DNA from: Granulicella sp. | GTDB lineage: Bacteria > Acidobacteriota > Terriglobia > Terriglobales > Acidobacteriaceae | Length of the DNA: 64,000 nt | Assembly (NCBI GenBank): GCA_965198515.1 | Contig: CBDAPO010000005.1 | Span: forward strand, 240,896 to 304,895 | Direction: 5' to 3' | In this document: positions 8,251 through 63,700 of the stretch, piece after piece | How positions within the stretch are numbered: position 1 is the first letter of the stretch | How the letters are laid out: each line of letters opens with the position of its first letter | Program-made: the position numbers and the translations under genes | Notes under the pieces: generated by a model | What the model saw: only the letters and a program-made list of their open reading frames with translations | Told to the model about the DNA's origin: nothing | Databases searched by the model: none

Positions 8251-8982
8251 CTACTCCAACAGAATTTTGACAAAGGATCCTTCGGGCAGAGTTTTGCCCC
8301 CAAGCGGGTGCACGACGCCGTCCCGTACAAAGCCACGCAGCATGGTGGGCTGCGCGTCCACTGGCTTAGACGTGGGTTCCATCCGTGCAGGGGCAGGCGG
8401 TGCCGTGGCACGCTGCGGGTACGGGGTTGCCGTAGCGGGCGGCCGGCTTTCGGCTGCGCCCGCGGTCTTGCCCATGCCGCGATCCATGGCCTCGTTCGCC
8501 AGCCGGTCCGCGACCTTGTTTTTGTTGCGAAGCGCGTGATGGAGTTCGAATCCCTTCAGCTGCGCGATCCGGCGCCGCGCTTCTTCGTGCAGGGGCTTCA
8601 GATCAGGCGAGTTCACCTTAAACTTGCCCTGGATCTGCTTCACCATCAGCTCGCTGTCCGAGATCACGCGCAGCTTCGGATGACCATGCTCCAGCGCCCA
8701 GGCCAGTACGGCCAGCAGACCGGAGTACTCGGCGAAGTTGTTGGTACGGAACCCGAGAAACTCGCTAAGCTCGGCGAGCGGCGCCCCGGCACCATCCACC
8801 AGGACGGCGCCAAAGCCCGCCGGGCCCGGATTGCCGCGCGCGCCACCATCACAGTGGGCGAGAATCCATCCCTCCGGCAACGGTGGCAGCTCTGACGGCA
8901 CAGCCTTGGGGCGAGAGGGGTACTTGCGAAAGGGAGGTCGACCCCCCGAAGGGCGACCGTCATCAGGAAACAGCGAAGCCAT
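8251..8982 (-). CDS. rnhA: Ribonuclease HI with C-terminal AF2212/DUF104-like tail
   Basis: CDGGARGNPGPAG, TNNFAEY, SDSEL, NKVADRLAN (all four acidic catalytic residues). Confidence 0.92.
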   Translation of the reverse strand: MASLFPDDGRPSGGRPPFRKYPSRPKAVPSELPPLPEGWILAHCDGGARGNPGPAGFGAVLVDGAGAPLAELSEFLGFRTNNFAEYSGLLAVLAWALEHGHPKLRVISDSELMVKQIQGKFKVNSPDLKPLHEEARRRIAQLKGFELHHALRNKNKVADRLANEAMDRGMGKTAGAAESRPPATATPYPQRATAPPAPARMEPTSKPVDAQPTMLRGFVRDGVVHPLGGKTLPEGSFVKILLE

Positions 8983-9027
8983 CGGTGGTTAGTGTAGCTG
9001 CGATGGTTGCGAAAGACGAACGCCACG

Positions 9028-9140
9028 AACGCAAAGAGCGCCAAGGTACGCAACGGATCCAGAGTCAACACCGGCTTCGGGATTTCAGGACGGCAACGGA
9101 CACCGTCGCGTACCTTGGCGTCCGTCGCGCTCTTTGCGTT
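9028..9140. repeat. Long imperfect inverted repeat made of nonamer-periodic units
   Basis: AACGCAAAGAGCG (9028-9040) pairs with 9128-9140; CCAAGGTACGCAACGG (9041-9056) pairs with 9103-9118 with one mismatch; 9-nt bulge, 46-nt loop. Confidence 0.9.
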
Positions 9141-9155
9141 GGTCTTTATGAGACC

Positions 9156-10256
9156 TCAAGCCGATCCAAGCGGCTTCAGCAGAGTCACCTTGCCGTCCGA
9201 GGTTTTGCGGAAGGCATGCAGCTCCTGCCCATTTACGTCGATGTGGCGCAGGACCACCGCTCCATCCACAATCTCCAGGTCAGAAAAGCCAAGCACCTTG
9301 GACCCGAATGGGCCACGCTTGGCCGGGTCCGTGGTCCAGTTGACTAGTTCCGCCCCACCGCCGCCGGAGATGACAAAGCTGGTCGGATGGCCGGCAAATT
9401 CAATGTGCTGCAGGTCATGGTCGTGCCCGGTAATCCAGAAGTCCACCTTGGCCTGCCGCACCATGGGCTCCCAACGTTTCAGCAGCAACTTGTTGTCCTT
9501 GTGGACACCGTTGGTGTACAGCGGGTGGTGGCAAACCACCGCCACAAACGGCGTTGTGCGCGGCTTGGCCAACTGCGCCTGGAACCACGACTCCTGCTCT
9601 TCCGTGTGCTCGCGGCTCATGGTGAAGCTCCACGGGAACGGATCGTCCTTCGTACCAGGCAGGTTGGAGTCCAGGCAGATAAAGGTAATCACCGGGTTCT
9701 TTTCCGGCCAGGTAAACGTGTACCAGTGGTCCGGCATCGTCCAACGCGTCTTTACGTGCTTCGGATAGGCCAGTTGCAGGTCGGCCTTGCTGTCGATCCG
9801 GTGCTCGTAGTCATGATTCCCAAGCACAGCATAGAAGGGGCAATGGAAGTGCGAGGTCGGGTACATCTGCTCAAAGTCGGTCTGCCAGCGTGGGCAGTCC
9901 AGCCCGCCCAGCATGTTGCCGTACCAGTTGTCGCCGAGCAGGAACACGGCCTGGGGATGCACCTGTTTGCCGTCAACGTAATGCTTCATCTGCTCGGCAA
10001 CCGCTTTCTGCTGCTGCGGATAGTGATCCGCACCCCAGTCGCCAAGCATCAGCATGTGCGGGTTGGCCGGATTGGGGGCAGGGGAGTCCTCGCCCAACGG
10101 CTCGGCAAAGAGTGCCCCGGGGCTCATCGCCGCCAGGGCGGAAAAGGCAACCGTCTGGCGCAGAAATCGACGGCGATTCAGGGTGTCAGGCTGAAACTTG
10201 GGCAACAAGAGTTCTCCGGGAGCAGTGCGGGCGCCGCTCAGCAGGTTGGACGTCAA
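9156..10256 (-). CDS. Tat-exported purple acid phosphatase-like metallophosphoesterase
   Basis: Twin-arginine NRRRFL; all five PAP motifs GDWG, GDNWY, GNHD, VCHH, GHDH. Confidence 0.9.
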   Translation of the reverse strand: MTSNLLSGARTAPGELLLPKFQPDTLNRRRFLRQTVAFSALAAMSPGALFAEPLGEDSPAPNPANPHMLMLGDWGADHYPQQQKAVAEQMKHYVDGKQVHPQAVFLLGDNWYGNMLGGLDCPRWQTDFEQMYPTSHFHCPFYAVLGNHDYEHRIDSKADLQLAYPKHVKTRWTMPDHWYTFTWPEKNPVITFICLDSNLPGTKDDPFPWSFTMSREHTEEQESWFQAQLAKPRTTPFVAVVCHHPLYTNGVHKDNKLLLKRWEPMVRQAKVDFWITGHDHDLQHIEFAGHPTSFVISGGGGAELVNWTTDPAKRGPFGSKVLGFSDLEIVDGAVVLRHIDVNGQELHAFRKTSDGKVTLLKPLGSA

Positions 10257-62828: not shown

Positions 62829-63401
62829 ATGAGCCTGACGTTGAATGCGAATGAGACGGCGCTGGTGTTGATTGATCTGCAGCGGGGGATTGTGGCGCGT
62901 GATTTGAAGCCGCATACGAGCAAGGATGTGGTGGAGCGGTGTGCGCGGCTGGCCCAGGCGATGCGTGCGGCGGGCGGAACCGTGGTCTATGTGCATGTGC
63001 TGATGAACGAGATTGCACGGCCGGCCGGGGATCGACCCATGATGCCGCCCAACGCGCCGCCACCGCCGCCCGAGGCCTCCGAGCTTGTGCCGGAAGCCGG
63101 GTATCAGCCCGGAACAGATGTGTTGATTGCGAAGCGGCAGTGGGGTGCGTTTACGGCGACGAACCTGGACCAGGCACTGCGGCGGCGTGGCGTGAAGACG
63201 ATTGTGATGGGTGGGATCGCGACGAACATTGGCGTGGAATCTACGGCTCGGTCAGCCATTGAATACGGGTACCAGCTGGTGTTTGCCGAGGATGCCATGT
63301 CGACGATGAGTGCGGAGATGCAGGCGTTTGCGGTGGGGACGATCTTTCCGATGATGGGCTTTGTGCGGTCTACGGAAGAGGTATTGGCGGCGTTGGGGTA
63401 A
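62829..63401 (+). CDS. Isochorismatase-family hydrolase (YecD-like)
   Basis: LIDLQ, IAKRQWGAF, GIATNIGVESTAR. Confidence 0.9.
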   Translation: MSLTLNANETALVLIDLQRGIVARDLKPHTSKDVVERCARLAQAMRAAGGTVVYVHVLMNEIARPAGDRPMMPPNAPPPPPEASELVPEAGYQPGTDVLIAKRQWGAFTATNLDQALRRRGVKTIVMGGIATNIGVESTARSAIEYGYQLVFAEDAMSTMSAEMQAFAVGTIFPMMGFVRSTEEVLAALG

Positions 63402-63469
63402 GGCGCTCACGCGGAGGGCGCGAAGGTTTCGCTGAGGGCGGGGAGGGTTCGTCGCCGGGGTAACAGCGG

Positions 63470-63488
63470 GTTCCCTGCGGGAACGACA
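63470..63488 (+). repeat. Intergenic REP-like hairpin, sister of the hscA insert
   Basis: GTTCCC-TGC-GGGAAC-GACA. Confidence 0.7.
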
Positions 63489-63494
63489 GCAAGA

Positions 63495-63542
63495 AATGCA
63501 AATGCAAATGCAAGTGCAAGTGCAAGTGCAAGTGCAACTGCG
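63495..63542 (+). repeat. Hexamer tandem repeat
   Basis: (AATGCA)3(AGTGCA)4 ACTGCG. Confidence 0.95.
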
Positions 63543-63580
63543 AACGCAACGGGCGCTAAGAACGCCAAGGTACGCGACGA
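63543..63580 (+). repeat. Nonamer-periodic dispersed repeat copy
   Basis: 32/38 identical to the reverse complement of 9103-9140. Confidence 0.85.
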
Positions 63581-63586
63581 AAAGCG

Positions 63587-63617
63587 AAGGCCTTCACCCG
63601 GTGGGGGTGAAGGCCTT
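63587..63617. terminator. Bidirectional terminator candidate between convergent genes
   Basis: AAGGCCTTCACCC-GGTGG-GGGTGAAGGCCTT (13-bp perfect stem). Confidence 0.85.
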
Positions 63618-63626
63618 TCTGCTGTT

Positions 63627-63700
63627 GCTACTTCCTACTTCCTGTTTGCTGTTTGCTACTTCCTGTTTGCTGTTTGCTACTTCCTGTTTCCTGTTTCTGT
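63627..63700 (+). repeat. Heptamer tandem repeat with 21-nt higher-order period
   Basis: Ten units of (G/C)CT(A/G)(C/T)TT; (CCTGTTT GCTGTTT GCTACTT) occurs twice. Confidence 0.92.

Follow-up and report, generated by a model that had tools for sequence, protein, structure and literature searches.

Within the 64,000-nt window of Granulicella sp. DNA analysed here (contig C5, positions 240896-304895, of a 4.32 Mb genome in six contigs with 62.5% G+C), a 136-nt imperfect palindrome at 9012-9147 separates the stop codon of a metallophosphoesterase gene from the start of an RNase H-like gene. The palindrome is a solo, decaying copy of a repeat family that is young and mobile-like and that is tied, both physically and statistically, to cassettes carrying a GxxExxY gene. 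Taken as a whole, the reading preferred here is of a gene-less copy of a genus-restricted repeat, gained at this site and since decayed, with the nuclease of the cassettes as the presumed means of spread, and it is held with moderate confidence.

Both flanking genes are on the minus strand. The upstream gene (9156-10256), for a calcineurin-like metallophosphoesterase (PF00149), has the element in its 3' flank, and the downstream gene (8251-8982), identified as an open reading frame with a domain match, encodes an RNase H-like protein (PF13456/PF00075; rnhA-like). The two arms, at 9012-9056 and 9103-9147, each span 45 nt, are 80% complementary, and enclose a 46-nt loop; both contain four NNCGCNAAG units. 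The proximal arm (9103-9147, minus strand), which comes first in the sense of the flanking genes, starts 8 nt past the phosphoesterase stop codon and reads AAAGACC AACGCAAAG AGCGCGACG GACGCCAAG GTACGCGACGG (53.4 bits with the arm model R1). The distal arm (9012-9056, minus strand) is the reverse complement of AAAGACG AACGCCACG AACGCAAAG AGCGCCAAG GTACGCAACGG (45.7 bits) and ends 29 nt before the rnhA-like ATG. The original prediction had described an inverted repeat of 113 nt between these genes, with a 46-nt loop between pairing arms and a 9-nt period. The repeat is present and is longer than that, the loop was measured at 46 nt, and the period is seen in 19 aligned arms as CGC cores that are invariant or nearly so at columns 11-13, 20-22, 29-31, and 39-41. 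The RNA fold of the minus (gene-sense) strand has an energy of -74.1 kcal/mol (z = -6.5), with 0 of 200 shuffled sequences as good, and that of the plus strand -66.9 kcal/mol (z = -5.5). There were no Rfam matches at gathering thresholds in the whole window.

The 46-nt loop (9057-9102, minus strand), from direct reading of the sequence and comparison with the nearest relative, can be read as the usual apex of the family plus a unique 36-nt insert. The apex would consist of GCAACGG at 9093-9099 and ACA at 9100-9102, pairing with CCGTCGC at 9103-9109, and the insert (9057-9092) is bordered by a second GCAACGG at 9050-9056. A genome-wide similarity search with the loop found no similar sequence elsewhere in the genome and no gene or repeat remnant. 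The suggestion that the palindrome might be the empty form of a repeat-flanked cassette is not upheld, as the loop carries no trace of a gene.

Arms of this kind are dispersed in the genome. An arm profile, built by iterated nhmmer searches of the genome, has 34 matches, and the genome-wide search for further copies that had been proposed thus finds 23 arms at approximately 20 loci at the cut-off of E<1e-5. The consensus of these A-type arms is C-AAAGACC-AACGCAAAG-GGCGCGAAG-AACGCCAAG-GTACGCCACGG, and the order of the four distinct nonamers and the termini AAAGACC/GGTCTTT are common to the dispersed copies. A typical full copy is a hairpin of 90-100 nt with a loop of 4-5 nt (C5:14676, C6:728258, C6:1254258, C6:1730261, and C6:562050), the loop length across copies ranging from 4 to 90 nt; the remaining copies are single arms joined to hexamer or heptamer microsatellites. 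One such half copy lies in the window (63536-63580, plus strand; 51.2 bits), where a single A-type arm is fused to a (TGCAAR)n hexamer array, and the 32/38 identity reported between the reverse complement of the right palindrome arm and 63543-63580 is exact. The looser copy noted at ~63.4 kb is a genuine arm of a second, B subfamily (63402-63440, plus strand; AAGGCGCTCACGCGGAGGGCGCGAAGGTTTCGC), with 92.7% identity over 41 nt to C5:145303-145343, and is of the same type as the repeat that follows the genome's own GxxExxY gene. The B subfamily (AAAGCGCTCACGCAAAGGTCGCCAAGGTTTCGC...) occupies at least five loci in the genome. A chance origin of the window palindrome is excluded because its fold beats those of shuffled sequences, the 13-mer CGCCAAGGTACGC is confined to arms, with exactly four occurrences in the genome, and the profile finds the 23 arms.

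The copies favour particular places. Using crude GC3-based gene calls, 10 of the 15 classifiable A-type loci are between convergent genes, against a baseline of 19% of intergenic gaps (binomial p = 8e-5), and none of the 15 is between divergent genes. Most A-type copies begin 0-40 nt past a stop codon.

The region at 63400-63700 of the window is a 300-nt convergent intergenic region filled by a stack of repeats. In order, these are the B-type arm, a small REP-like hairpin (gggttccctgcgggaac), the (TGCAAR)n array, the A-type arm, a 13-bp terminator hairpin, and a (CTRYTTS)n heptamer array.

The arm was also searched for with a sequence-only covariance model (R1) in 61 genomes of the GTDB genus and in 120 others of the phylum, seven of these being from other genera of the same family. 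Matches were found in 38 of the 61 genus genomes, with 0 to 43 arms in each, and outside the genus there was a single marginal match (E = 9e-5). This patchy presence within the genus, with essentially nothing in the 120 other genomes, indicates that the sequence family is young and restricted to the genus.

The interval between the phosphoesterase gene and rnhA differs among relatives. The element is present at the orthologous interval of the nearest relative (L027), whose rnhA is 92% identical, and it is missing from those of the next six (L028, L029, L033, L035, L042, and G023). It was therefore gained at this interval, and the presence/absence variation that had been proposed as a check is found, with one filled relative and six empty ones. 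In L028 the interval is a 45-nt spacer, in the other five it consists of other short sequences, and the window interval minus the element is ~40 nt, in keeping with the L028 spacer. No target-site duplication can be seen in the single clean filled/empty comparison, that of this genome and L027 with L028. Read by eye from the alignment, the flanks of the L027 and window copies are ~80% alike and the loops ~40%; the arms of the L027 copy are ~85-90% conserved, one having five nonamers instead of four. The copy would have been inserted into a phosphoesterase-RNase H spacer of ~40 nt in the last ancestor that this genome shares with L027, after which the arms would have drifted independently, one nonamer would have been gained or lost, and the loop would have been replaced.

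In a separate lineage (L030, L031, and L013, the last from genome G011), the phosphoesterase-rnhA interval holds hairpins with tandem-heptamer arms (GTAGGGA / TCCCTAT), and the G011 contig stops within this heptamer repeat. In the relatives L032, L034, and L036 the phosphoesterase gene and the adjoining small open reading frame are gone and an MFS transporter gene is directly before rnhA; the phosphoesterase gene itself is therefore variable.

The convergent intergenic site of the C5:14676 copy has orthologues in four genomes (L125 of G018, L127 of G075, L124 of G011, and L126 of G055), each with a different tandem-unit hairpin, made of (GGAAGTA)n, (GCAAACA)n, or AGTGAGTAG units. Tandem-unit hairpins, as far as these comparisons indicate, turn over quickly at fixed sites.

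An explanation in which the palindrome is a functional RNA of the host, kept for a role as terminator, mRNA 3' stabiliser, or rnhA regulator and only secondarily similar to other copies, is considered unlikely. The location of the element 8 nt past a stop codon and of most copies between convergent genes, its very stable fold, and its AAAG...CTTT termini, which mimic a bidirectional terminator, are all in keeping with such a role. Like Rho-independent bidirectional terminators, the copies follow stop codons and have a GC-rich stem with A- and T-rich ends. Unlike terminators, their stem is 3-5 times longer, their sequence is common to many loci, their loops vary between 4 and 90 nt, and the T run is of 3 nt; no U-tract of at least 5 in 8 follows the stem, the sequence there being UCUUUCGC. 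A consensus scan of 8900-9250 for promoters and terminators returned no promoter, nor any gene-strand terminator.

The two tests that distinguish a selected RNA from a DNA repeat are also against it. In six complete A-type hairpins, the mean arm identity within one element is 0.71, compared with 0.75 ± 0.06 between elements, and thus no compensatory evolution was found by this comparison. Since arms are no more alike within than between elements, they drift independently around the family consensus. Of the 13 hairpins that can be oriented by a linked GxxExxY gene, six fold better as the sense strand, with a mean difference of 0.7 kcal/mol over the set, hence there is no strand bias of the kind that G-U pairing in a selected RNA would leave. 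Decaying copies of a palindromic DNA master fit these results better than RNA under selection. Moreover, four different nonamers in a common order with common termini cannot arise in place.

Immediately upstream of rnhA, 8-15 nt before the rnhA-like ATG, is a CTACACTA box (8990-8997, minus strand), the CTACACT core of which is invariant in six aligned sequences whether the element is present or not. It may be the -10 element of a promoter belonging to rnhA itself, with a short leader or none. Apart from this genome, the nearest relative alone has the element at this site, and the relatives without it keep the box. The absence of both strand bias and covariation between the arms weakens the idea that the hairpin tunes rnhA expression. 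An effect on rnhA expression is at most a possibility, and the element may have incidental terminator or stabiliser activity. Several orthologous intergenic sites in relatives have another hairpin instead, and often a plain, classical terminator; a host-level need for a 3' hairpin at these sites is possible because relatives hold other hairpins at several of the same sites. At the phosphoesterase-rnhA locus the element is unlikely to serve the host in any dedicated role. At most, it provides a stable 3' stem-loop for the phosphoesterase transcript and has displaced the sequence upstream of the rnhA promoter box.

The repeat family is associated with GxxExxY genes. The domain search found only one such gene in this genome (PF13366/TIGR04256; C5:2181-2585, minus strand), the stop codon of which directly adjoins a B-type hairpin of 100 nt. 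GxxExxY genes were found in 12 of the 41 genus genomes examined, giving 13 loci, of which 12 have an intact gene and one a gene whose start is missing. In 13/13 loci a complete hairpin of short tandem units of ~9 nt is located 0-50 nt past the GxxExxY stop, and in none of the 13 is there an arm 5' of the gene, both arms being 3' of it. The idea that nonamer repeats flank GxxExxY genes is therefore right within the genus as to the link and wrong as to the flanking, the hairpin being on the 3' side only. The GxxExxY start is within ~35 nt, and mostly within 3-12 nt, of the stop codon of a host gene. From the C-terminal sequence alone, on which these names rest, this host gene is probably gcvPB in most loci (product ending ...TAAKEW) and otherwise is taken to be thyX-like (product ending ...VDLLQR or similar). 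The hairpin unit differs even at orthologous sites, with CGCAAAG, CGCCAAG, CGCAGAT, CGCAGCG, and CACGGAG all represented. In genome G043 (L111), the hairpin linked to the GxxExxY gene is A-type, like the window element, and the stop codon TAA overlaps the hairpin terminus.

At the putative gcvPB site the hairpin is present in 8/8 genomes with a GxxExxY gene and in 0/7 with the same synteny and no GxxExxY gene, which have a short spacer or a classical terminator instead. The gene and the hairpin are therefore one unit of insertion or deletion, of ~0.5 kb.

In the present genome, two B-type hairpins (C5:2075-2178 and C5:4236-4362) bracket a 2.1-kb segment containing the GxxExxY gene and the putative gcvPB. 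The second of these is in a divergent intergenic region and includes a (CTCTGCGAC)n run. A different class of locus, encoding four-helix-bundle proteins (PF05635), had no arm-model match in this genome at E values up to 1.

Solo copies are also associated with the gene. The 12 gene-bearing genomes carry a median of 16.5 arms and the 29 that lack the gene a median of 1.0 (Mann-Whitney p = 3e-4), kinship being ignored in this comparison and many of the genomes being incomplete MAGs. Ten genomes were searched with all of the gene-linked hairpins, and in five of these (G056, G017, G015, G043, and the present genome, G000, for its B-type copies) solo copies match the genome's own gene-linked hairpin. 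For example, G056 has over 20 solo copies that match its own linked hairpin over the full length, loop included. The CGCAGAT type of the hairpin linked to the G017 gene recurs in that genome in at least 8 copies and was seen in none of the other nine genomes compared, and at least 15 solo copies in G015 match one of its two linked hairpins. The A-type is common to G043 and the present genome, which also has at least five solo B-type copies. The match is not universal. The present genome has a B-type hairpin at its own GxxExxY gene, yet the window element and most of its solo copies are A-type. Three genomes with a GxxExxY gene (G014, G054, and G018) have 0-1 matching solo copies, and four (G010, G012, G024, and G044), some of them incomplete MAGs, have 15-22 arms with no GxxExxY gene detected.

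The GxxExxY protein is ~130 aa (15 kDa) and belongs to a large family, PF13366/TIGR04256, that is listed with its function 'unknown' in a survey of PD-(D/E)XK proteins (PMC3424549). A PDB sequence search with it returned noise alone. A confident AlphaFold model based on 12 sequences from the genus has a pLDDT of 92.5 and a pTM of 0.86, and its best, though weak, fold matches in the PDB are to LHK-Exo, lambda exonuclease, and the Cas4 protein SSO0001 (E ~1e-3, TM ~0.45). D...E-x-K residues are conserved in the GxxExxY alignment. As modelled, the protein is a minimal PD-(D/E)XK core, which agrees with its classification in Pfam.

In its gene-bearing form the family consists of a ~0.5-kb cassette in which a GxxExxY gene (PF13366) of PD-(D/E)XK fold is followed directly by one hairpin. 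Most likely, the nuclease would recognise and nick the hairpin, or a cruciform, of its own nonamer type, and repair or recombination would then copy the hairpin into permissive 3' intergenic sites. Alternatively, the hairpin next to the gene could simply be the source of copies that spread by other means, which would also yield co-occurrence and type matching. The more general proposal, made from sequence comparison, is that GxxExxY proteins may be dedicated enzyme partners of tandem-unit hairpins, each recognising its own unit and creating, maintaining, or policing the copies. This is put forward tentatively, as a possibility that falls somewhat short of an even chance. In the literature on GxxExxY and PF13366, no paper was found that treats repeats or a pairing with hairpins, and no description of these nonamer hairpin repeats was found in that on REP and MITE of Acidobacteria.

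There are published precedents for pairs of an enzyme and a repeat, both in REP/RAYT (PMC3733652) and in NTS/Ssn (PMC11893778). The nicking and copying proposed here would resemble these in logic, with a different enzyme. As with NTS/SRM and SsnA, a single-strand nuclease of the GIY-YIG kind, a multi-copy hairpin repeat goes together with the gene for a small nuclease, and the specificity varies between homologues and cognate sequences (PMC11893778). The differences are that the nuclease here is PD-(D/E)XK rather than GIY-YIG, that the repeat architecture is not the same, and that the partnership here is a proposal from sequence comparison. As in REP/RAYT, the family goes with one single-copy enzyme gene that has a copy of the repeat beside it, and is patchy among relatives; unlike REP/RAYT, the enzyme is a ~130-aa PD-(D/E)XK protein and not a Y1/HUH transposase, and the hairpin is 3' of the gene only.

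Should the partnership be real, it would be a third one between a repeat and an enzyme, beside REP/RAYT and NTS/Ssn, and one based on a minimal PD-(D/E)XK nuclease. The genus provides a tight natural experiment in which gene and hairpin are gained and lost together at one chromosomal site, the number of solo copies tracks the presence of the gene, and the type of the solo copies matches the linked hairpin in several genomes. The hypothesis that nonamer hairpins have a nuclease specific for their sequence or structure is now testable. The family also explains contig breaks and odd short open reading frames in acidobacterial assemblies, and for annotators the nonamer hairpins should be seen as repeats rather than as regulatory RNAs.

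A classical MITE, a deletion derivative of an IS whose terminal inverted repeats let a DDE transposase bind and move it in trans, is a quite improbable origin for the family. The size of ~95-136 nt, the inverted termini, the intergenic position, and the presence/absence polymorphism would all fit. However, the one clean comparison described above shows no target-site duplication, and no longer element or transposase gene in the genome has the same (AAAGACCAACGC-type) ends, every BLAST and nhmmer match there being a short hairpin or a half arm. In addition, the entire element, and not its ends alone, is palindromic and composed of tandem units. ERIC/IRU and the Correia elements of Neisseria are long palindromes of MITE-like type in bacteria and are transcribed with neighbouring genes. 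The present family is like these in being made of imperfect palindromes of ~100-150 nt that form long hairpins and are variably present between strains, and unlike them in that Correia elements have defined terminal inverted repeats and a TA duplication and ERIC are enterobacterial. To our knowledge, none of these elements is composed of tandem nonamers and none is tied to a nuclease gene. ERIC/IRU and Correia elements are both listed in PMC3733652.

A REP or REPIN element mobilised by a RAYT (Y1/HUH) transposase is highly improbable. Short extragenic palindromes in tens of dispersed copies, mostly downstream of genes, are shared with REP and REPIN sequences. REP/BIME-REPIN elements with RAYT transposases were reportedly described by Nunvar in 2010 and by Bertels and Rainey in 2011. 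The genome contains five Y1_Tnp-like matches, and Acidobacteria are known to carry tyrosine transposases flanked by terminal inverted repeats (PMC3733652). These Y1 genes are, however, bordered by other, unrelated repeats, with no arm next to any of them. By definition, a REP is a palindrome of 20-40 nt, one end of which carries GTAG or CGTC as a tag (PMC3733652), whereas the tandem-nonamer arms here are 45 nt with termini AAAGACC/GGTCTTT and no such tag. The original prediction of a dispersed, non-autonomous element of MITE or REPIN kind thus holds for its being dispersed, non-coding, palindromic, and polymorphic, and fails for membership of either family, there being no related IS and no association with a RAYT. 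The probability that the element is an attC-like recombination site of an integron, there to mark a gene cassette, is negligible: the layout of a gene followed by a 60-140-nt imperfect palindrome is that of an integron cassette, and by direct reading the A-type ends GACCAAC/GTTGGTC match 6/7 positions of the attC core-site consensus RYYYAAC/GTTRRRY, but the best integron integrase score is 61 bits against a cut-off of 265 (TIGR02249), the copies occur singly, for the most part where genes converge, rather than in arrays, and the core sites are missing from the other hairpin types.

Two of the Y1 transposase-like genes (L008 and L009; G000 C6:1872785 and C6:2784873) are flanked by their own 33-36-nt inverted repeats, such as GGGTGCCCCACATCTCGCTTCTGAGATGTGGGT. 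'ggggcaccc' motifs similar to these Y1-flanking repeats are found in intergenic regions of the relatives L037 and L038.

At another location in the present genome (C6:2804770-2804890), a 121-nt B-type hairpin is in frame and without stops inside an open frame of 1322 aa, and GC3 falls to 0.60 at this hairpin. Either the repeat was inserted in frame within a gene, or two genes have been joined through it. L130 (G068:C199:2843-4240) has an inserted toxin-antitoxin pair, with a PIN-domain toxin and a Phd/YefM-like antitoxin, beside a nonamer arm, at a site that is a plain hairpin copy in the present genome.
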